NCBI GenBank assembly: GCA_040879145.1
Contig: JBBDKX010000035.1
Coordinates: 1,122 to 65,121 of the forward strand
Direction: 5' to 3'
Origin: Candidatus Spechtbacterales bacterium
Lineage (GTDB): Bacteria > Patescibacteriota > Minisyncoccia > Spechtbacterales > 2-12-FULL-38-22
Length of the DNA: 64,000 nt
Position 1 is the stretch's first letter; every line of letters starts with the position of its first letter. Shown here piece by piece: positions 6,432 through 60,353 of the stretch. The notes under the pieces were generated by a model. The model worked only from the letters and a program-made list of their open reading frames with translations. It was not told the origin of the DNA and did not search any database. The position numbers were made by a program, and so were the translations under genes.

Positions 6432-6460
6432 AATAGCCCTTAAAGGGGCTATTATTTTTT
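6432..6460 (+). terminator. rho-independent terminator
   Basis: aatagcccttaaaggggctatt + T6. Confidence 0.6.
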
Positions 6461-6485
6461 AGGTTAAAAATTAGGTGTCTCGGTC
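6455..6485. repeat. 31-bp direct repeat copy 1 (ttttagg(g)ttaaaaattaggtgtctYggtc)
   Basis: near-identical to 7536..7567. Confidence 0.7.
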
Positions 6486-6638
6486 TGTAAAACTTGCTAA
6501 ATATAAATATTTATGATATATAAAGACAAACCTCCAGAGCTTGTTGTAGTCATTATACCTCGCAATTTAGGGAATTGCGAGGGCTCATTATACCGTGCTT
6601 AAAAGGAGTGCGGTATCGACAAGCAAAGGAGATAAGCC

Positions 6639-10893: not shown

Positions 10894-11050
10894 AAATATT
10901 TATAAAGATTAAAATTTATTTACACAATATAATTTAAAATATCGTCCGAGGGAAGGGGTCGGGAAACGGAAGTTTCCCGTGGCGAATGTCGTTTTGCCCT
11001 GAGCTTGCCGAAGGACGACGGTCGCTATTTTCTATATAGTACCTTACTCA
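10894..11050. other. dnaX upstream region: 27/31-bp duplicate of dnaX start (encodes MSKVLYRK*) plus ~85-nt GC-rich structured element with GGAA-capped hairpin
   Basis: 11020-11050 atgagtaaggtactatatagaaaatag vs real start atgtctaaagtactatatagaaaatat; hairpin gggaaac-ggaa-gtttccc. Confidence 0.5.
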
Positions 11051-11076
11051 TAGTCAAATATTATCACAAACGCGGA

Positions 11077-11105
11077 GCAAAAGAAAATCCCACTACTTAC
11101 AGTAG
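11077..11105 (-). terminator. terminator hairpin downstream of M16 peptidase
   Basis: aatcccactacttacagtagcgggatt. Confidence 0.5.
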
Positions 11106-15506: not shown

Positions 15507-16370
15507 TTACTCAGAATTATTACTCTTTTCAGTATCAATTATCCTTATATTCTCTTCGGCGAGTTCCCAAAGCTGCCTGCGCGCTTCTTGTTCCGCGTTC
15601 TTGCGCATACCAGCGACAATTTCTTCCGCTTCCTCGCGCGACTGCCCCGTTGATTCCACAATACTCTCTATGAGCTCTTCGGTCATCTCAGGAGAATAAA
15701 AACCTGTTTCAAAATCTCTGGCAATATGCTCTTCTATCATTCGCTCCATGTCAAAAAGGGCGACTATCTGCTTTCCCATATGTCTTTTTTCCGGGGAAAC
15801 CATTCCGACAGCGCGCCTTGATGCCACAGCCCTTTCGGCAAGCAAAATCTCGCGTTCGTACCATCCGACAAGAATGGTAAGGTGCATGCGCAGCGAGTGT
15901 CCGCAAGGCAGAAATTCAGACGCTCTTCCATCTTCCTCGCAGTCTCCATTTCCACAAGGACATCCCGAAGATGTTTGCCCAAGCTCTTTTCCCGCCTTTT
16001 CGAGCAAGTCTTCCAATTCCTTAATCCTGTTAGTTTTCAGATACTCATTCTTCACAAATATCTGATAAAAAGGAATAAGTGAGGTAAAAAATCCAACATC
16101 GTCACCTGCAGGGGTAACATTAATACCCGGGGGCAGTTCCAAGTCGCTATTTGCGAGCTTATACGCGTCATTTACAACTCTGAAAGTCTCCAAAAAAGTC
16201 TTAACTGTAGTATTGTCGCCGGAAATTAGCTTATCGCGAACCATTGTGTCCAGAATGTCATAGAAGACATGTGCTTCAAAAGCGCCAAACCTCCAAACTT
16301 CTCCGGGCAGCGGTTCTCTGACAGAATTATCGCGTACAAAGTTAAAGATAGATTCTTCAGAAATTCCCAT
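15507..16370 (-). CDS. hypothetical protein with central Cys cluster (CPCGNGDCEE...CGH)
   Basis: ATG at 16370 with SD aaggagg 8 nt upstream; ORF track extends to 16436. Confidence 0.5.
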   Translation of the reverse strand: MGISEESIFNFVRDNSVREPLPGEVWRFGAFEAHVFYDILDTMVRDKLISGDNTTVKTFLETFRVVNDAYKLANSDLELPPGINVTPAGDDVGFFTSLIPFYQIFVKNEYLKTNRIKELEDLLEKAGKELGQTSSGCPCGNGDCEEDGRASEFLPCGHSLRMHLTILVGWYEREILLAERAVASRRAVGMVSPEKRHMGKQIVALFDMERMIEEHIARDFETGFYSPEMTEELIESIVESTGQSREEAEEIVAGMRKNAEQEARRQLWELAEENIRIIDTEKSNNSE

Positions 16371-19083: not shown

Positions 19084-20145
19084 TTATTTAAGCCTGGGTG
19101 GCTTTTGATTGTAATTCATATCCACTAAAACTTCCCGTAACTGATCTATATTTTCAAGCACAACACCTGTTCCTCTAACAACGGCTGTCAAAGGGTCTTC
19201 GGCGATACGTACAGGCATCTGAGTCTCTTTTTGTATAAGCTCATCGAAACCGCGAAGTAAACTTCCGCCTCCCGCAAGAACGATTCCGCGCTCCATTATG
19301 TCGGCTAAAAGTTCTGGTGGAGTTTGTTCAACTGTACCCTTAATGGCGGTTGCCAAAGCATTAACTGAAGGTGTTAATGCTTCGCGAATATGCTTATCCT
19401 GAATTATTATTTCTTTTGGTAAACCTGTAATAAGGTCTCTTCCGCGCATAGGCATTGAGATTGTTTCTTCCAAAGGAAGTACGGATCCGGCCGCTATTTT
19501 AAGATTTTCAGCTGTCCTTTCTCCAAGAAGTAGGTTAAATTCTTCACGAGCGTAATTTACGATATCCTCATTTAACCTGTCTCCCGCAATGCGTAATGAA
19601 CGCGCAACCACTATACCTCCGAGAGATATTACAGCTACCTCGGTAGTACCTCCTCCTATGTCTATTATCATATTTCCCGAAGGCTCCTGAACATCGAGGC
19701 GCGCGCCAATTGCGGCAGCCATAGGCTCTTCTATTAAATACACCTCACGGGCTCCCGCGGCTTTTGCTGCATCTTCAACAGCGCGTTTTTCTACTTCGGT
19801 AACTCCCGATGGAATCCCTACAACAACACGCGGACGTGGAAGAAAGCGAAGTGGCTCAGAGTGAACTTTATCTATAAAATATTTAAGCATCTGCTGTGTT
19901 ATCTCAAAATCTGAAACCACGCCGTCCACCAAAGGACGTGAAGCTACAATATGAGCAGGTGTTTTACCCACCATTCTCCTGGCCTCCTCGCCTATAGCAA
20001 GAACACGCCCGGTTTTTTGGTTTATAGCGACAACAGATGGTTCGTTTATAGCTATTCCTTTTTTCCGAACATAAACAAGTGTATTTGCGGTACCAAGGTC
20101 TATTCCTATGTCTAGAGAAAAGGCTCCTAAAATTTTATTTAACAT
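19084..20145 (-). CDS. mreB: rod shape-determining protein MreB
   Basis: DLGTANTLVYV, GGGTTEVAVISLGG actin-fold motifs. Confidence 0.9.
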   Translation of the reverse strand: MLNKILGAFSLDIGIDLGTANTLVYVRKKGIAINEPSVVAINQKTGRVLAIGEEARRMVGKTPAHIVASRPLVDGVVSDFEITQQMLKYFIDKVHSEPLRFLPRPRVVVGIPSGVTEVEKRAVEDAAKAAGAREVYLIEEPMAAAIGARLDVQEPSGNMIIDIGGGTTEVAVISLGGIVVARSLRIAGDRLNEDIVNYAREEFNLLLGERTAENLKIAAGSVLPLEETISMPMRGRDLITGLPKEIIIQDKHIREALTPSVNALATAIKGTVEQTPPELLADIMERGIVLAGGGSLLRGFDELIQKETQMPVRIAEDPLTAVVRGTGVVLENIDQLREVLVDMNYNQKPPRLK

Positions 20146-21478: not shown

Positions 21479-21557
21479 AGTATCGTGGATCCTCGACGCT
21501 ATAACAAAATCAAAGATTTTGATAGCGTCGGGATTCGCAAGCTCACAAAACAAGATT

Positions 21558-21650
21558 ACACTGATAACAACTGATACCACTGATGATTTTTACATGCATC
21601 AGCGTAATCAGCCATTATCTGTGATATCTAAGCGAGCGAAGCGAGCTTAA
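21558..21650. repeat. cactgatRa...gatgattttta repeat family copy 1
   Basis: similar to 31801..31895; ends in cgagcgaagcgagcttaa module. Confidence 0.55.
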
Positions 21651-22729: not shown

Positions 22730-22764
22730 TTTTAGGTTTTAGGTTTTAGGTTTTAGGTTTTAAG
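22730..22764. repeat. tandem aggtttt x5 immediately upstream of rseP start
   Basis: tttttaggttttaggttttaggttttaggtttt. Confidence 0.7.
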
Positions 22765-22793
22765 TGTAATACCTAACCCCTAATACCTAGAAC

Positions 22794-25158: not shown

Positions 25159-25212
25159 GGCGAGGAGCGGAATAAGACGTAGATGACAACTACGTTGTTG
25201 AGCACCGCAGCC
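25159..25212. repeat. ggaataagacgtagatRAYAACTACGTYGTT-core repeat copy 1 (flank modules swapped relative to copy 2)
   Basis: cf. 44049..44104. Confidence 0.55.
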
Positions 25213-25245
25213 GCTGACAAAGAAATAAGCGAAAAGATAAAGCCA

Positions 25246-26512: not shown

Positions 26513-27541
26513 TTATTTCTTACTCATTACACTTCGCTTATAGACCTCCAAATTCTCAAGCGCTATTCCTGTGCCTTTTACTACGCACAAGAGAGGCTCG
26601 TCTGCAACATAAGCGGGTACGCCCGTTGCTTCCGATAACAACTCATCAAGATTTTTTAAAAGCGACCCGCCACCGGTCATAACCATTCCCTTATCCATAA
26701 TGTCTGCAGAAAGCTCAGGAGGAGTTTCGCGCAAAACAGATTTTACTGTGAGAACTATCTCTTTTAAGCGCTCGGATATGGCATTGGTTATTTCATTAGT
26801 CTTTACCTCAATATTTTTAGGCAGGCCTGATGTCATGTCGCGACCGCGCAACTGAAAGACTTCCTCGTCTTTAAGCGGAAGAGCGCTACCTATTGTTATT
26901 TTTATCTCCTCTGCGGTTCTTTCTCCAATGGCTAGATTGTACTGGCTCTTAATATAGCCCACAATGGCGCTGTCTATTTTGTCACCCCCAACGCGCGTTG
27001 AAGCGTTAGACACAATACCCCCCAGTGAAATAACAGCCACCTCGGTGGTGCCACCCCCTATATCCACAACCATGTTTCCGCTTGGTGAATTAATAGGTAT
27101 ACCCGCACCTATCGCTGCAAGTACAGGCTCTTTTACCACATAGGCGGCCTTGGCACCCGCATTCATAGCAGATTGCACTACAGCCCTTCTTTCTGTTGAG
27201 GTAATGCCTGCAGGAATAGATATCATTATTTCAGGTTTTTTAAGCCGCACCCTCCCTGACGCTTTATTTACGAAGTATCGAATCATAGATTCGGTTACTC
27301 TGTAATCGGCAATGACACCATCTTTCAATGGTCTGTGAGCAACTATGCTGTCAGGTGTCATGCCTATCATTTCTTTTGCCTCTTTACCAACAGCCAATAT
27401 GGTGTTGTCCCAAACAGATACCGCAACTACAGAGGGTTCATTCACGATTATTCCTCTTTTTGGCACATACACAAGAGAGTTTGCGGTGCCCAAATCTATT
27501 CCTATTTTTGATGGTGATAACATATGGTCGCTATGCTCCAA
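26513..27541 (-). CDS. MreB-like actin homolog (second paralog)
   Basis: IDLGTANSLVYV, GGGTTEVAVISLGG. Confidence 0.85.
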   Translation of the reverse strand: MEHSDHMLSPSKIGIDLGTANSLVYVPKRGIIVNEPSVVAVSVWDNTILAVGKEAKEMIGMTPDSIVAHRPLKDGVIADYRVTESMIRYFVNKASGRVRLKKPEIMISIPAGITSTERRAVVQSAMNAGAKAAYVVKEPVLAAIGAGIPINSPSGNMVVDIGGGTTEVAVISLGGIVSNASTRVGGDKIDSAIVGYIKSQYNLAIGERTAEEIKITIGSALPLKDEEVFQLRGRDMTSGLPKNIEVKTNEITNAISERLKEIVLTVKSVLRETPPELSADIMDKGMVMTGGGSLLKNLDELLSEATGVPAYVADEPLLCVVKGTGIALENLEVYKRSVMSKK

Positions 27542-27662
27542 TTTTTAATTTAAAATTTTAATTGAATGCCTTAATTTATAATGTTTTAACCTGCCTGCCC
27601 GCTCCGCCGAGGAAGCGAGGCGAGCCGGCAGGCAGGTAGGAATTAAATAATTTGAAATTGTT

Positions 27663-30650: not shown

Positions 30651-30743
30651 CTACTTTTTCTTTCGGTGTCTCATTCGCCTGCGCATCTTCTTTCTTTTGC
30701 GCCTTTTAACAGATTTTCTTTTGTTTTTTAACTTAGTACCCAT
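30651..30743 (-). CDS. candidate 30-aa highly basic peptide (MGTKLKNKRKSVKRRKRKKMRRRMRHRKKK)
   Basis: my translation of minus strand; not in ORF track (<60 aa); lies between rpsI and the 25-bp palindrome. Confidence 0.3.
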   Translation of the reverse strand: MGTKLKNKRKSVKRRKRKKMRRRMRHRKKK

Positions 30744-30764
30744 GATATTTTATTCACTTTGTTC

Positions 30765-30894
30765 ATAAAAAGTATAGAGTATGCAGTATACAATATACAG
30801 GAGTGCTTTGTAATTAGCTTTGCTGAATACTCTATACTATATACTCTATACTTGAACGAGCGCGAAGCGTGAGTTTTAAGCTCGCTTCGCGAGT
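30765..30894. repeat. ~120-bp palindromic intergenic repeat, family A copy 1
   Basis: agtatagagtatgcagtatacaatatacaggagtgctttgtaattagctttgctgaatactctatactatatactctatacttgaacgagcgcgaagcgtgag. Confidence 0.8.
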
Positions 30895-33048: not shown

Positions 33049-33219
33049 ATTTTTTATTTCCTACCTGCGTCGCATTTTGCAACACGGCAGGCAGGCGCTT
33101 CGCTCACATAACCGCTGATATATGCTAATTTTGCGGATTTTATGCAGATAGTATCCGCATTAATCTGCTTTAATCCGTATTAATCCGCGGTTTAAGCGAA
33201 GCGTTAGTGAGCTTAATTA

Positions 33220-33711
33220 TTATCGTGAATAAAACTCTATAACTGTTTGAAAATTAAACGGCTGTATTTGTTCTTTAATATCAGGTAAAGATTTTACCTT
33301 TAACTCCTTTTTCTTTTTATCTAAAACCAACCATGATGGAGGATTGAGGTTCTTTACTCTTATCTCGTAATCGGCAAATATTCCCTTTACAGCGCTTGTT
33401 TCTTTGACTGTTATAATATCGCCAGGGCGCACCTGATAAGATGCTATGGTAACCTTCTTTCCGTTTACTTGCATATGCCCATGGCTTATAAGCTGCCTTG
33501 CCATCCGCCGTGTTGGCGTGAATCCTCCCGCAAAAACAATGCTATCCAGACGAAATTCAAGTAAAGAAAAGATATTTTCGGGCTTTTGTCCCTTATCAAA
33601 ATACCGCCTGAATTGCTTTTCGCGCAACCCATACTCTTCGCGGATTTTCTGTTTTTCCGCAAGCTGTAAACCGTACTCTGATTTTTGTCTTGGTCTTCCT
33701 CCTTTTGCCAT
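33220..33711 (-). CDS. rpsD: 30S ribosomal protein S4 (short form)
   Basis: S4 domain RLDSIVFAGGFTPTRRMARQLISHGHMQVNGKKV. Confidence 0.9.
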   Translation of the reverse strand: MAKGGRPRQKSEYGLQLAEKQKIREEYGLREKQFRRYFDKGQKPENIFSLLEFRLDSIVFAGGFTPTRRMARQLISHGHMQVNGKKVTIASYQVRPGDIITVKETSAVKGIFADYEIRVKNLNPPSWLVLDKKKKELKVKSLPDIKEQIQPFNFQTVIEFYSR

Positions 33712-33809
33712 AATAATTATTTGTGGCTAAGCCCTTTGGGCCGCCATCCCGGCCGTTAGGCCTAGGGACTTCACTCACAAATTTAGGATTTAGGAATTAG
33801 GAGATAGGA

Positions 33810-33862
33810 GTTAGCTTTTTTTACGTTTTCTAATTCCTATTTCCTAAGCCCTAATTCCTGCG
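33810..33862. repeat. tttttttacgttttctaattcctaWttYctaa...ttcctgcgagc repeat (copy 1)
   Basis: cf. 34487..34545. Confidence 0.6.
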
Positions 33863-33874
33863 AGCTTTAGTGAG

Positions 33875-34312
33875 TTATACTCTTCTTCTTTTAGCCGGCC
33901 TGCATCCATTGTGGGGCAGTGGCGTAACATCTTTAATTGCAGTAACATTCAACCCTTTGCCCGTTAAAGCTCTGACAGAAGAATCTCTGCCGGCCCCTAT
34001 CCCTGTAACATAGATATGCACCTCTTTCATGTCAACATTTTCCAATTTACTTAAAAGTATGTCTACAACCTGTGTCGCGGCATACGGAGTAGCCTTTCTC
34101 GGTCCCTTAAAGCCCGCGGCACCCGCAGTTGACCACGCCAAAACATTGCCGTCCTGGTCTGAAGCGGTAAGCATTGTATTGTTGTAACTTGCGCGCACAT
34201 AAATATTCCCTCGTTCAACTATACGAGCTTTCTTTTTATTCTTGGCTTTCTGAGCGTCCGTTTTGGATGCCTGATCGCCTGCTTCAACTATTGCTACACG
34301 TTTTTTACCCAT
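33875..34312 (-). CDS. rpsK: 30S ribosomal protein S11 with Lys-rich N-terminal extension
   Basis: S11 family core; C-terminal region GIGAGRDSSVRAL. Confidence 0.95.
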   Translation of the reverse strand: MGKKRVAIVEAGDQASKTDAQKAKNKKKARIVERGNIYVRASYNNTMLTASDQDGNVLAWSTAGAAGFKGPRKATPYAATQVVDILLSKLENVDMKEVHIYVTGIGAGRDSSVRALTGKGLNVTAIKDVTPLPHNGCRPAKRRRV

Positions 34313-34317
34313 AATTT

Positions 34318-34356
34318 TTTGTCCCGATACCGCCCGAATCTTTGATTCGCCTGCCT
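34318..34356 (-). promoter_or_regulatory. conserved leader motif directly upstream of rpsK ATG (gcgaatcaaagattcgggcggtatcgggacaaaaaatt)
   Basis: same motif as upstream of proS; preceded by CCTGCCTGCC hairpin. Confidence 0.55.
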
Positions 34357-34486
34357 GCCGGTTTACATGCCGATTGGCATGCAGGCAGGCTCACAAAAAG
34401 TGAACAGTAAGCAGTGAACAATTAACAACAGGGCTCCGTTTTTTCTTTTCTACTGTTTCCTGTTCACTGTTTACTGTTATCTGCGA

Positions 34487-34545
34487 GCTTTAGTTTTTTT
34501 ACGTTTTCTAATTCCTAATTTCTAATTCCTAATTCCTGCGAGCCT
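34487..34545. repeat. tttttttacgttttctaattcc... repeat (copy 2)
   Basis: gagctttagtttttttacgttttctaattcctaatttctaattcctaattcctgcgagc. Confidence 0.6.
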
Positions 34546-34615
34546 GTCTGCGTGCGTTCACCTGTCTGCCGTGCTTGCGGCACAGGTAGACGCACAGGCA
34601 GGCGTTAGTGAGCTA

Positions 34616-35363: not shown

Positions 35364-35631
35364 AAAGTGACTATGTTGAACTCAAATCTATTAAACTCAG
35401 ACCTCTACAATGATAACAAAATAAAAAAAATAGGTCAACCCCCACACCAATTTATGGGATTTCTTAGCTACTATAATGAAATTATTGACGGTATAACAAA
35501 TTGGTAGTGGGGGTCAACCCCTATTTTTAATAGGTCCCTAGGCCTTTGGCTGGTGGCTAGGCGTAAAGCCGCCATCCCGGCTCTGCCTAGGGAGATCCCG
35601 GCCCGCCCGCGCGGGTCTAGGGACTTCGCTT

Positions 35632-35742
35632 CACGAAAAGTACAAAGTATACAGTATTTGATATGCAGGGGTGCTTTATAATTAGCTTTGCTTAATACTA
35701 TATACTGCATACTGTATACTTGAACGAGCGAAGCGAGCTTAA
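35632..35742. repeat. family A palindromic intergenic repeat copy 2
   Basis: cacgaaaagtacaaagtatacagtatttgatatgcaggggtgctttataattagctttgcttaatactatatactgcatactgtatacttgaacgagcgaagcgagc. Confidence 0.8.
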
Positions 35743-37562: not shown

Positions 37563-37613
37563 GGATGGTTAGTGAATGCGAGCCATGGCGAAGTGTGAAC
37601 TTACAGCCATGAG

Positions 37614-37652
37614 CACCCCGCACATAAAATTGATAATCAATTTTATGTGCGG
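37614..37652 (-). terminator. perfect palindrome hairpin nested in a larger inverted repeat
   Basis: ccccgcacataaaattgataatcaattttatgtgcgggg. Confidence 0.6.
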
Positions 37653-37693
37653 GGTGAGTAATTCTAAGCTCGCTACATTCACTAAGAATTACT

Positions 37694-44048: not shown

Positions 44049-44104
44049 GGCCGAGCACCGGAATAAGACGTAGATAATAACTACGTCGTTGAGGAGCGCA
44101 GGCC
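44049..44104. repeat. ggaataagacgtagat...ctacgtcgtt repeat copy 2
   Basis: cf. 25159..25212. Confidence 0.55.
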
Positions 44105-44137
44105 ACAACACAGTAGTGCGTCAAATTTTAAAGTTCC

Positions 44138-47724: not shown

Positions 47725-47766
47725 GATTTTTGTTTCGCCTGCCTGCCGGCAGGCAGGGCTCCGCCT

Positions 47767-47895
47767 CACGAAAAGTATAAAGTATACAGTATTCAGTATA
47801 TAGGAGTGCTTTATAATTAGCTTTGCTTAATACTATATACTAAATACTGTATACTTGAACGAGCGAAAGGTGAGTTCCAAGCTCGCTTTGCGAGC
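47767..47895. repeat. family A palindromic intergenic repeat copy 3
   Basis: cacgaaaagtataaagtatacagtattcagtatataggagtgctttataattagctttgcttaatactatatactaaatactgtatacttgaacgagcgaaaggtgag. Confidence 0.8.
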
Positions 47896-49128: not shown

Positions 49129-49140
49129 AACAGTAGCTCG

Positions 49141-49240
49141 CTTCGCGAGCAGGTTATAGGTTTTAGATTTCAGGTATCAGACTATCGCTTAATTTTTGAG
49201 TCTAACACCTATTACCTAACACCTATTACCTATCTTATAA
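49141..49240. repeat. aggttttag / taggtatcag / acacctattacctaac x2 leader repeat
   Basis: related segments at 22730..22800 and 60115..60195. Confidence 0.5.
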
Positions 49241-49243
49241 GGG

Positions 49244-52937: not shown

Positions 52938-53012
52938 GCCGGTTCATTTTAGCCGGTCGGACTCTTTCTTCCGACCCCTTTACTTCCAACCTTACTATAA
53001 GTCCTATTCTTC
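52938..53012 (-). promoter_or_regulatory. promoter-like module with TA(A/T)AAT box, hairpin ggtcggaagaaaNagtccgacc and ATAGGAC 9-bp repeats, upstream of secD
   Basis: near-identical module at 53715..53813 upstream of ssrA. Confidence 0.5.
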
Positions 53013-53285: not shown

Positions 53286-53643
53286 TGGTGGAGGTGCCGG
53301 GAATTGAACCCGGGTCCGGCGTAATATTCATAAGCGTTTTAGTTTACGTGCGTTGACTCCGTAAAATTTCGGAAGGGTTATACAGAGACAGATTCACCTT
53401 TCCTATCCGTTGTTCAGTGTCCCTTGCAAAGCACTTCGGAAAAAGCTTTGCTTCGGCAAGCACTCTGGTTCTTCTTAGCTTAGAATGCGTGGGCTAAGAA
53501 GCTGGTTGCTCTTTCAGGCGGCAGCCAGGAGGCCTCTGCTATTTGTGGCAGTTATATGTTTCCAGCGACGGTTTACGAGCACACGCTGGTTTCTCGGCAC
53601 GAGTTCTTAGTTTCAACGACACCGTCGAGACCAATTCACCCCC
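53286..53643 (-). ncRNA. ssrA: tmRNA (SsrA), one-piece, CCA encoded
   Basis: 5' GGGGGUGAAUUGGUCUCGACG..., 3' ...GGACCCGGGUUCAAUUCCCGGCACCUCCACCA; acceptor stem pairs. Confidence 0.9.
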
Positions 53644-53714: not shown

Positions 53715-53813
53715 TCAGTTGCCGGTTCATTATAGCCGGTCGGACTATTTCTTCCGACCCCTTTACTTCCAATCATCCTATAGGTCCTATTCGTCCTATA
53801 GGTCCTATTCTTC
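53715..53813 (-). promoter_or_regulatory. promoter-like module (TATAAT box + hairpin) with four ATAGGAC 9-bp tandem repeats, ~95 nt upstream of tmRNA 5' end
   Basis: ggaagtaaaggggtcggaagaaatagtccgaccggctataatgaaccggc; gaataggacctataggacgaataggacctataggat. Confidence 0.5.
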
Positions 53814-57733: not shown

Positions 57734-57795
57734 ACGGGTCACTGCACCTGCCTGCGCCGAGTGAAGCGCGGCAGGCAGGGTGACCCGCTTTTTTA
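57734..57795 (+). terminator. rho-independent terminator
   Basis: cgggtcactgcacctgcctgcgccgagtgaagcgcggcaggcagggtgacccg + T7. Confidence 0.8.
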
Positions 57796-59232: not shown

Positions 59233-59252
59233 AGATTTTGTTCGCTAACGCT

Positions 59253-59385
59253 CACGAAAAGTATAAAGTATTCAGTATACAGGGGGTGCTTTGTAATTAG
59301 ATTTGCTGAATACTCTATACTATATACTGCATACTTGAACGAGCGTGAAACATAAGTTCTAAGCTTGCATGGCGAAGCGTCCGCT
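59253..59385. repeat. family A palindromic intergenic repeat copy 4
   Basis: cacgaaaagtataaagtattcagtatacagggggtgctttgtaattagatttgctgaatactctatactatatactgcatacttgaacgagcgtgaaac. Confidence 0.8.
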
Positions 59386-59402: not shown

Positions 59403-60110
59403 CTACATGTTAAGATATTCATCCCACTTGCGATAAAGCTCGCGAGTAGCTATTACATCGTAATAATTATATTGCGCAATCTCCTTGTATCTTTTATCAT
59501 GAAAGGCTTTAGGAACATCCTTTCCCTCTATTTCGCCTTCCCTTTTTGGGCTTTCAATCCCGAACGCCTGTGCGGCAAAATGGAGCTTAGGTTTTCTGAA
59601 CATAGCGCCATAAAAAGTAAGCTGGTCCTGTAAATCTATATGTTTCGCTCCCCTCTGGAGTGGCAAATACCTGTTGCTCAGTAAATTTTGCGTGGGCTTA
59701 ATACCGTGCACAGCAGAGCGTATCATAAGATAAGGAATATCAAATCCCCTGCCGTTAAAAGTAATAAAGCAATCATAATGACTGGCAACATCCCAAAAGC
59801 GTTCTAAAATCTCCGCCTCCGTCCCCACGCGGTATTTTACGCCCTCGTCCTCCCAGTCCTCCATGTCCTCATCCGGTGCCTGAAAATAAACCGCGCCGTT
59901 ATCATCTCCGTCTAAAATAGCAACAGATACTATCTCGCCCAAAAAAGGAGAAAATGGAAAGCCCTCTTTTACACTCTCAAGAGATTTTTCAAGATCCTCC
60001 TCTGTACGCGATTCCCTCTCAGCCCACTCATTAAAAATTTCCTTTGATTTTTCATCAAATTCATCATAGGGTTTACCCACTGTTTCTATATCAAGCACTA
60101 AGTAGTTCAT
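59403..60110 (-). CDS. RNase H-like 3'-5' exonuclease (DEDD/PolB-exo-like)
   Basis: YLVLDIETVG exo I motif, FNGRGFDIPYL exo II, YYDV exo III. Confidence 0.65.
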   Translation of the reverse strand: MNYLVLDIETVGKPYDEFDEKSKEIFNEWAERESRTEEDLEKSLESVKEGFPFSPFLGEIVSVAILDGDDNGAVYFQAPDEDMEDWEDEGVKYRVGTEAEILERFWDVASHYDCFITFNGRGFDIPYLMIRSAVHGIKPTQNLLSNRYLPLQRGAKHIDLQDQLTFYGAMFRKPKLHFAAQAFGIESPKREGEIEGKDVPKAFHDKRYKEIAQYNYYDVIATRELYRKWDEYLNM

Positions 60111-60195: not shown

Positions 60196-60353
60196 GCTAT
60201 GCAAGCCTATTTATATGTTATCACTAAAACAGGTACATTCCAAATCAATTGCCGGTACTAACCCAAAAAAGGCTCAAATGAGCCTTTTTAAATGTTTCAA
60301 CCTACCTACGCCAATGCTTCGGCAGGCAGGCGCCGTGCCTCATGTTGAAACGT

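Follow-up and report, generated by a model that had tools for sequence, protein, structure and literature searches.

Family A, a set of palindromic intergenic repeats with heptanucleotide-array arms in a Candidatus Spechtbacterales genome

Described hairpin repeats and their resemblance to Family A

Heptanucleotide repeats are reported as the most abundant or over-represented class of long SSRs in many bacteria, and both their origin and their function are unsettled (PMC4692102, PMC4679880). A proposed reason why 7-nt units are favoured is polymerase slippage (Mrazek 2007, as cited in PMC4692102 and PMC4679880). In Xanthomonas, GGGAATC repeats are intergenic and mostly located at 50 nt or less from a stop codon; 70-75 convergent pairs are able to form stem-loops, and the position of these pairs is conserved between related strains and species while their length and sequence vary (PMC4692102). 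The TAACTGA repeats of Beggiatoaceae, cyanobacteria and Bacteroidetes are also present in ribosomal operons (PMC4679880), and RAYTs mobilise the hairpin doublets known as REPINs (PMC3116915). Finally, the TIGR arrays of Tas systems, found in CPR bacteria and phages, consist of tandem 36-nt units with box C/D motifs and variable spacers, beside Nop-domain Tas genes, and some variants carry palindromic stems of variable sequence (PMC12045711). In the searchable literature, we found no earlier description of dispersed palindromic repeats of the MITE or REP type in Patescibacteria.

Here, we analysed a 64-kb stretch of DNA from a member of Ca. Spechtbacterales (hereafter the window), in which an earlier note had described four palindromic intergenic modules that we call Family A (copies c1 to c4). 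The repeat is genuine and belongs, as a variant, to a kind of hairpin already known; it is not a new system. On balance, we consider it probable that Family A is a recently copied family within a lineage-wide class of intergenic fold-back hairpins with inverted heptanucleotide arms.

Like the heptanucleotide SSRs (Xanthomonas GGGAATC, cyanobacterial STRR/long SSRs and TAACTGA), Family A is made of tandem 7-nt units in intergenic regions near stop codons. Indeed, each array holds at least three units, the two arrays are convergent and able to form a stem-loop close to the upstream stop, and the number and sequence of the units vary between relatives at conserved sites, as illustrated by the units of the c3 spacer and by c4, which is about one unit shorter. 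In those genomes the repeats are built on one or a few units throughout, whereas here the unit changes at almost every locus and from genome to genome. Unlike the published heptamer SSRs, Family A also possesses a conserved non-repeat loop and GC frames, and it has been copied to new sites as a whole module of ~100-140 nt. The loop recalls the SDR of Nostoc, reportedly a non-repeat sequence of ~21-27 nt lying within tandem heptamer arrays, whose mobility Elhai et al. in 2008 are said to have inferred from its distribution. The two are alike in their placement within heptamers and differ in sequence and phylum.

As with REP/REPIN and E. coli BIME elements, Family A is short, extragenic, hairpin-forming, multi-copy and non-autonomous (PMC3116915). 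It also lies at the 3' ends of genes and has mosaic partners, namely a GCTCGC-GAA-GCGAGC mini-hairpin and CCTGCCTGCC palindromes. BIME mosaics and REP functions, such as mRNA stabilisation in operons, are known from E. coli. Unlike REPs and REPINs, which are 20-40-nt palindromes with a GTAG or CGTC tag arranged as an inverted doublet, Family A carries no such tag, its arms are AGTATNN arrays, and no RAYT gene is present in the 64-kb window.

We rejected two other kinds of structured repeat. Like TIGR arrays, Family A occurs in parasitic, ultrasmall bacteria, but it occurs as isolated, scattered copies with conserved loops, and the window has no Nop-domain or Tas gene. Integron attC sites have core sites (R''/R', RYYYAAC ... 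GTTRRRY) on either side of a structured, variable centre and follow cassette genes that lack promoters. Here the frames are GCTCRC/GTGAGC, the nearest approach to a core site is GTTAGCG with one mismatch, and the flanks are syntenic housekeeping genes.

Architecture of Family A and of the surrounding hairpin class

The window is a piece of bacterial chromosome with housekeeping genes and not phage, and it has no similarity to phages. One of its proteins is 100% identical to an NCBI MAG protein annotated as Candidatus Spechtbacterales (Patescibacteria/CPR). It carries infA-rpmJ-rpsM-rpsK-rpsD-rpoA-rplQ-rplM-rpsI, tmRNA, six tRNAs and aminoacyl-tRNA synthetases, and also encodes SecDF, SecA, MreB, a PBP and a DNA polymerase III subunit. 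MreB exists as two paralogues (19084-20145 and 26513-27541; 75% DNA identity over a short stretch, repeat family D4), and the tmRNA gene (53286-53643) is flanked by 75-nt direct repeats that are 91% identical (52938-53012 and 53721-53795).

Family A comprises four palindromic inserts of ~100-140 nt, all on the minus strand, like the coding sequences that flank them (Table 1). The four near-identical modules reported earlier are all present at the coordinates given for them, with pairwise identities of 83-90% over a core of ~100 nt, and the core sequence ggRgtgctttRtaattagMtttgct given for them is right for the four copies. Two subgroups can be distinguished, c1/c4 and c2/c3. A repeat search of the window returns Family A as its largest family (D1). 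Furthermore, two motifs of 21-22 nt, one taken from the loop and the other from the 5' frame and first arm, match the four Family A sites only in the 64 kb, with a chance expectation of 0 for both (100 shuffles). Low-complexity AT sequence was rejected as the cause of the similarity. An assembly artefact was likewise rejected because the copies carry their own variants and have unique flanks that are syntenic with other genomes.

Table 1. Positions of the Family A copies, of their parts and of other hairpins and features in the 64-kb window
Feature	Position	Strand	Parts or context
c1, whole module	30753..30894	-	between rpsI (S9) stop and conserved 30-aa ORF
c1 core hairpin	30763-30862	-	left arm 30824-30853; loop core 30803-30823; right arm and U-run 30763-30802
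c1 5' mini-hairpin ACTCGC-GAA-GCGAGC	~30880-30894	-	
30-aa very basic ORF (MGTKLKNKRKSVKRRKRKKMRRRMRHRKKK)	30651..30743	-	gene downstream of c1
c2	35625..35738	-	directly 3' of TAA of 607-aa gene
c2 core	35631-35730	-	left arm 35692-35721; loop 35671-35691; right arm 35631-35670
c3	47760..47895	-	directly 3' of DUF8128 gene TAA; upstream of TrwB-like ATPase gene (ATG 47724)
c3 core	47766-47865	-	left arm 47827-47856; loop 47806-47826; right arm 47766-47805
c3 5' mini-hairpin GCTCGC-AAA-GCGAGC	47881-47895	-	
c4	59236..59385	-	between PolB-exonuclease-like gene (TAG 59403-59405) and HhH-GPD glycosylase gene (ATG 59232)
c4 core	59252-59345	-	left arm 59307-59336; loop 59286-59306 (one substitution); right arm 59252-59285
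Class hairpin, CTGAT-type units	21540..21646 (~21.6 kb)	-	frame TAAGCTCGCTTCGCTCGC ... TTTTGTGAGC
Class hairpin without GC frames	22730..22793 (22.7 kb)	-	3' arm (AACCTAA)x4
Class hairpin, unit AATGGCT	26.4 kb		
Class hairpin	31.8 kb		
Class hairpin, unit GCGGATTAAT	33.1 kb		inside S13-S11-S4-rpoA operon
Class hairpins, units GGAATTAG and ACAGTRA	33.8 and 34.4 kb		inside S13-S11-S4-rpoA operon
Three expanded ribosomal-operon spacers (S13-S11-S4-rpoA)	33049..34615	-	class members, GC-rich palindromes, GCTCAC/GTGAGC frames
Class hairpin, TAGGTRWTA-type units	49129..49243 (49.2 kb)	-	followed by mini-hairpin GCTCGC-GAA-GCGAGC
Class hairpin	60.1 kb		
CCTGCCTGCC-type palindromes	~1790-1830, 27590-27640, 34540-34600, 47735-47754, 57745-57790, 60320-60350		

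Read 5' to 3' on the minus strand, the order of the parts is stop codon, extension (in c1, c3 and c4), CGCTCG-TTC, left arm, loop, right arm and tail. The 5' extension of ~30 nt consists of the mini-hairpin GCTCGC-RAA-GCGAGC and TTRRAACTCAC; c2 is without it and is followed by a GC-rich repeat and then by the infA promoter region. The left arm is made of four tandem heptamers, A(AGTATNN)x4, the loop of a conserved GCAAAKCTAATTAYAAAGCAC and a few nt (~21-28 nt in all), the right arm of (NNATACT)x3-4 and the tail of TTTT-CGTGAGCG. In c4, the right arm is 6 nt (about one unit) shorter, with three units instead of four, and the 3' frame is GTGAGCGTTAGCGAACAAAAT. Variable positions are mainly the NN of the heptamers and the junction between loop and right arm. 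The stem is AT-rich and 24-31 bp long, and the folding energy of the whole module ranges from -37 to -51 kcal/mol. Because the arms are periodic, the copies pair in different registers, that of c3 being shifted by one unit.

Some elements of the initial description have to be amended. The arms, then taken as terminal inverted repeats, are real (fold z-scores of -3.5 to -7.3 for the four copies) but do not appear to be terminal: the similarity between copies continues beyond them for 10-45 nt, asymmetrically at the two ends, with CGCTCGTTC on one side and TTTTCGTGAGCG on the other. Each copy was also said to end in a fixed string next to the upstream stop. The exact string cgagcgaagcgagcttaa exists in c2 only, while c1, c2 and c3 do abut a TAA (distance of 0 nt) and c4 lies ~20 nt from its TAG. 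Finally, the location between two same-strand genes is true of c1 only through the 30-aa ORF downstream of rpsI. An extremely basic ORF of 30-31 aa (MGTKLKNKRKSVKRRKRKK.RRR.RHKKKK) is found directly 3' of rpsI in four Spechtbacterales genomes (in the relatives, L009 ~6445-6540, L010 ~11010-11105 and L011 ~15674-15766). It has no NCBIfam match; judging by its sequence, it looks like a small ribosomal-protein-type peptide, and we presume that it recalls bS22.

A survey of every spacer in the window revealed at least 13 long hairpins with arms of tandem 7-11-nt units, and at least 10 different arm units are used by these class members within 64 kb. The density of four copies in 64 kb, first described as unusual, is nothing out of the ordinary in this genome, Family A being one among at least 13 hairpins of the same build. 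Many of them begin directly after a TAA stop, within loose GC frames TAAGCTCRC ... TTTTGTGAGCG. The frames vary: TAA-[AG]CTC[AG]C is found at the stop and TTTTG[TC]GAGCG past the hairpin; in some cases AGCGAAC-AAAAT directly precedes the following ATG. Scanning for the 3' frame AGCGTTAGCGAACAAAAT gave 11 matches, against ~17 by a rough chance estimate, and one of these is a real Spechtbacteria module. As such matches are near chance level, the frames are too loose to serve as a search handle.

Other repeats populate the spacers of the window. Family D3, with GGAATTAG units, is present at 33816-33865, 34439-34488 and 34494-34543. One of its copies keeps only the left arm and the start of the loop, after which a different hairpin module opens with the same GCTCGCAG frame; this suggests a nested insertion or a recombination through the frames. 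GC-rich palindromes of the form CCTGCCTGCC...GGCAGGCAGG recur in spacers, often beside AT-rich heptamer hairpins, in an arrangement that resembles BIME-like mosaics. Another GC-rich repeat (GAAGTCCCTAGG...GCCGGGATGGCGGC...TAGCCAC) directly follows both c2 (35530-35625, minus strand) and the 33.8-kb hairpin (33712-33770, minus strand). We also noted a structured intergenic element of ~130 nt, found at non-orthologous sites in the window (37563-37693, minus strand) and in the related locus L005 (2186-2351). It is composed of an outer stem, a perfect hairpin of 20-24 bp and a second hairpin, and it has the GCGAGCTTAGAA frame in common with Family A. Its outer stem displays an apparent compensatory change (TTAGTGAAT/ATTCACTAA vs TTAGCGAA/TTCGCTAA). 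Lastly, 82-nt repeats that are 73% identical and contain the hairpin GACGTAGAT...ACTACGTYG are located at 25161-25242 and 44052-44133, in strongly folding intergenic regions of 251 and 346 nt.

Occupied and empty sites in related genomes and in metagenomes

We compared the window with eleven syntenic loci from eight related Spechtbacterales genomes, and found class hairpins in the relatives as well (L001, L002, L005, L007, L011, L021 and L143). The earlier note had proposed to look for insertion polymorphism across related genomes, and such polymorphism is indeed observed: the c1 site is empty in two of them (L009 and L011) and the c2 site in four (L002, L009, L010 and L011). At the c1 site of L009 and L011, the S9 stop is followed by TATATC/TATATT only and then by the ATG of the 30-aa ORF. 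Relative to them, c1 corresponds to 142 extra nt placed exactly between the S9 TAA and TAAAATATC-ATG, the junction reading ...AGCGATAA[142 nt]TAAAATATCATGGG in the window, ...AGCGATAATATATCATGGG in L011 and ...AAAGATAATATATTATGGG in L009. The C-terminus of S9, APQWSKR*, is unchanged despite c1. At the same junction, L010 has a different insert of ~110 nt. At the c2 site, the empty genomes have a spacer of 4-80 nt before the TTGACC promoter hairpin of infA, while the same spacer in the window holds Family A and the GC-rich repeat, the downstream TTGACC promoter hairpin being conserved. Both c1 and c2 are insertions relative to the syntenic relatives, and the coding sequence is untouched.

The region upstream of infA forms a conserved long hairpin (35395-35520 of the window, minus strand; 6915-7045 of L010). 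Both of its feet carry the GGGGTTGAC box, which is -35-like, followed by -10 hexamers of the TATCAT/TATACC type. The promoter consensus of the lineage seen there is TTGACY-N17-TATnnT.

The spacers of the ribosomal operon measure 75-303 nt with their hairpins in the window, against 1-87 nt in the relatives. At other sites, hairpins are shared while their units are not. The c3 spacer, from DUF8128 to TrwB, holds a tandem-unit hairpin in seven of nine genomes, with seven different units (AGTATNN, TACGAAA, TAACTAAAT, CTAAGTT, ACGTATC, TAGGTAG and AAACTTR), and its frames are common to the window, L001, L002 and L011. The c4 spacer of L002 contains a hairpin with ATGTCAA units. Moreover, L011 has a two-copy family of its own, with near-identical TAGGTAG-unit copies at two loci. 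Altogether, these comparisons indicate that hairpins are gained in a lineage-specific manner, each genome amplifying its own family, and that there are long-occupied sites where the inner sequence turns over and the architecture persists.

Outside the lineage, the exact pattern of Family A (arm end and loop) has 0 matches in genome, metagenome and viral collections. Searching the window, the relatives and 100 metagenome loci with a covariance model (R1) yielded no additional degenerate copies, the scores being at most 48 bits elsewhere vs 103-131 bits for the four true copies. The bare architecture, defined as three AGTATNN units, 20-50 nt and two NNATACT units, is present in at least 120 metagenome contigs of 30-63% GC. 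Among the matches listed, 107 of 123 metagenome hairpins lie outside long ORFs and 96 have the stop of a long ORF at 300 nt or less (median 10 nt). In viral contigs, period 7 is found at 5 loci and periods 6 and 8 at 0; other pentamer cores at period 7 gave 6 and 1 loci. According to these scans, the architecture is of a general kind, tied to heptamers and located near the ends of genes. Within the metagenome loci (L023-L142), some AGTATNN hairpins lie between tRNA genes (L106 and L137), and several human-gut contigs (L029, L047, L061 and L112) have the loop ...CCATGYGGGATAAATGTAC... in common.

Origin and function of the hairpins

If Family A is a recently copied family, as we lean to believe, its heptamer arms would arise and turn over by polymerase slippage on the 7-nt units, and their complementarity would be maintained by template switching from one arm to the other. 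A single module, possibly at the ancestrally occupied c3 site, would then have been copied whole, from its stop-proximal end to its 3' frame, to other post-stop sites. The uniform orientation of the copies, their start right after a TAA and their hairpin point to strand-specific, hairpin-dependent copying or to recombination through the frames. In the first case, copying may be non-autonomous and analogous, by analogy only, to REPIN/RAYT or IS200/IS605 single-strand transposition; in the second, it may proceed through the shared GC frames. Family A would be transcribed together with the gene upstream and give its RNA a stable hairpin at the 3' end, with U4-5 behind it. Such a hairpin on the upstream cistron is the likely physiological consequence; at most it would terminate transcription leakily, block an exonuclease or be a target of RNase III, as a side effect and not as a dedicated regulation.

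Several points count against recent copying. Four copies are visible, within the 64-kb window, and we infer the copying mechanism entirely. No transposase, RAYT, integrase or Nop-domain protein is found among the ~50 ORFs of the window or annotated in the fetched loci of the relatives. A target-site duplication of fixed length is not general in the four copies: TAA/ATAA flanks both sides of c1 only, and none flanks c2, c3 or c4. That hairpins persist at the c3 and c4 spacers could rather reflect selection for such a structure at these positions.

This last point leads to the rival that survives best, although we hold it for rather unlikely: Family A would be a selected intercistronic RNA element with the frame GCUCRC...UUUUGUGAGC, acting as an attenuator or leaky terminator, a REP-like mRNA stabiliser or an RNase III site, and its identical copies would result from homogenisation among functional sites. 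The copies are co-oriented with the genes, three of them start at the stop, and U4-5 is found past the 3' arm. The c3 spacer keeps its hairpin in seven of nine genomes despite a complete turnover of the units, c2 lies where a transcription unit truly ends, with the infA promoters directly downstream, and RNase III is encoded by relatives. Several class members also fold far better as sense RNA, for instance with -35 vs -22 kcal/mol for the antisense. Nevertheless, when 24 class members are considered, there is no overall asymmetry between sense and antisense (74 vs 54 G-U pairs, Wilcoxon p = 0.54), and Family A itself displays none. RNAalifold predicts 31 pairs for the four copies with 0 compensatory changes, a count to be read with the caveat that heptamer arms pair in shifted registers, as in c3, and thus make column-wise covariation unreliable. 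RNA-level selection on the hairpins is not demonstrable. Furthermore, c1, c2 and the ribosomal-operon hairpins are missing in relatives and are therefore dispensable, and strong termination within the S13-rpoA operon would be harmful.

With regard to termination and initiation, the idea of a terminator-plus-promoter cassette put forward in the earlier note is not supported. An intrinsic terminator has a GC stem of ~5-12 bp, a short loop and at least 5-6 U, whereas Family A has an AT-rich stem of 24-31 bp, a loop of 21-28 nt and a run of 4 U (5 in c1) followed by CGUGAG, and a terminator scan of the window does not flag it. Ordinary GC-stem/T-run terminators occur elsewhere in the window, so that heptamer hairpins are not the only terminator type of the organism. 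As for promoters, the sigma-70-like matches inside the element are weak (9/12), their frequency is that of the background (50 in the window vs 40.8 +/- 6.3 expected), and at c1, c3 and c4 the next start is too close to accommodate a promoter. The clear promoters of the organism follow TTGACY-N17-TATnnT, a pattern absent from Family A.

The second rival, which we judge improbable, is a classical MITE, derived by deletion from a DDE-type insertion sequence and moved by a transposase that would act in trans from another place in the genome and recognise the inverted ends. The MITE-like architecture initially recognised stands in part. Like Correia, ERIC and Nezha elements, Family A is a dispersed, multi-copy, strictly intergenic fold-back of ~100-150 bp (~100 bp for the near-perfect fold-back), with filled and empty sites between genomes. 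IS5/PIF-type elements generate TAA/TTA target duplications, which the TAA/ATAA flanks of c1 recall. The likeness fails in other respects. The other three copies have no flanking duplication, the inverted repeats do not seem strictly terminal, the shared sequence exceeding them and differing at the two ends, and neither a parent insertion sequence nor a transposase is present in the 64 kb or in ~150 kb of the relatives. Uniform orientation and abutment on stops are unexpected for cut-and-paste DDE elements. Moreover, the unit differs in every related genome, while an end recognised by a transposase should be conserved.

A protein-binding array (iteron-like), a promoter cassette or an sRNA gene is very improbable: heptamer repeats were proposed as sites of post-transcriptional regulators in Beggiatoaceae and Nostoc (PMC4679880; bioRxiv 10.1101/2022.06.06.494920) and the element does contain the weak promoter matches mentioned above, but with at least 10 units in 64 kb and different units in each relative, a binding array would need an equal number of proteins in a ~1-Mb genome, the four downstream genes have no common functional theme, and an Rfam search of the window returned tRNAs and tmRNA only, with no match for Family A. 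The sRNA and protein-binding-site readings of the earlier note find no support.

A bolder proposal, to be taken as a long shot, goes beyond recent copying: Ca. Spechtbacterales would have an as yet undescribed means of placing entire hairpin cassettes right behind stop codons and of swapping them there, and the operons would be punctuated by RNA hairpins that keep their position, are fluid in sequence and set the relative expression of cistrons. The cassette frame may then be TAA-GCTCRC ... TTTT-GTGAGCG-(TTAGCGAAC-AAAAT)-ATG. Candidate mechanisms would be a hairpin-specific single-strand transposase or RNA-templated copying, with arms diversifying by slippage.

For comparative work, this lineage is an unusually clean system: its tiny genomes are syntenic, the same spacer carries seven units in seven genomes, and whole modules have been copied to new post-stop sites, even inside a ribosomal-protein operon. 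Whether such hairpins are selfish DNA or operon punctuation, and what copies them, are questions that are testable in this lineage. If the negative result from the literature is right, dispersed palindromic repeats would join the known features of genomes that are usually called streamlined.
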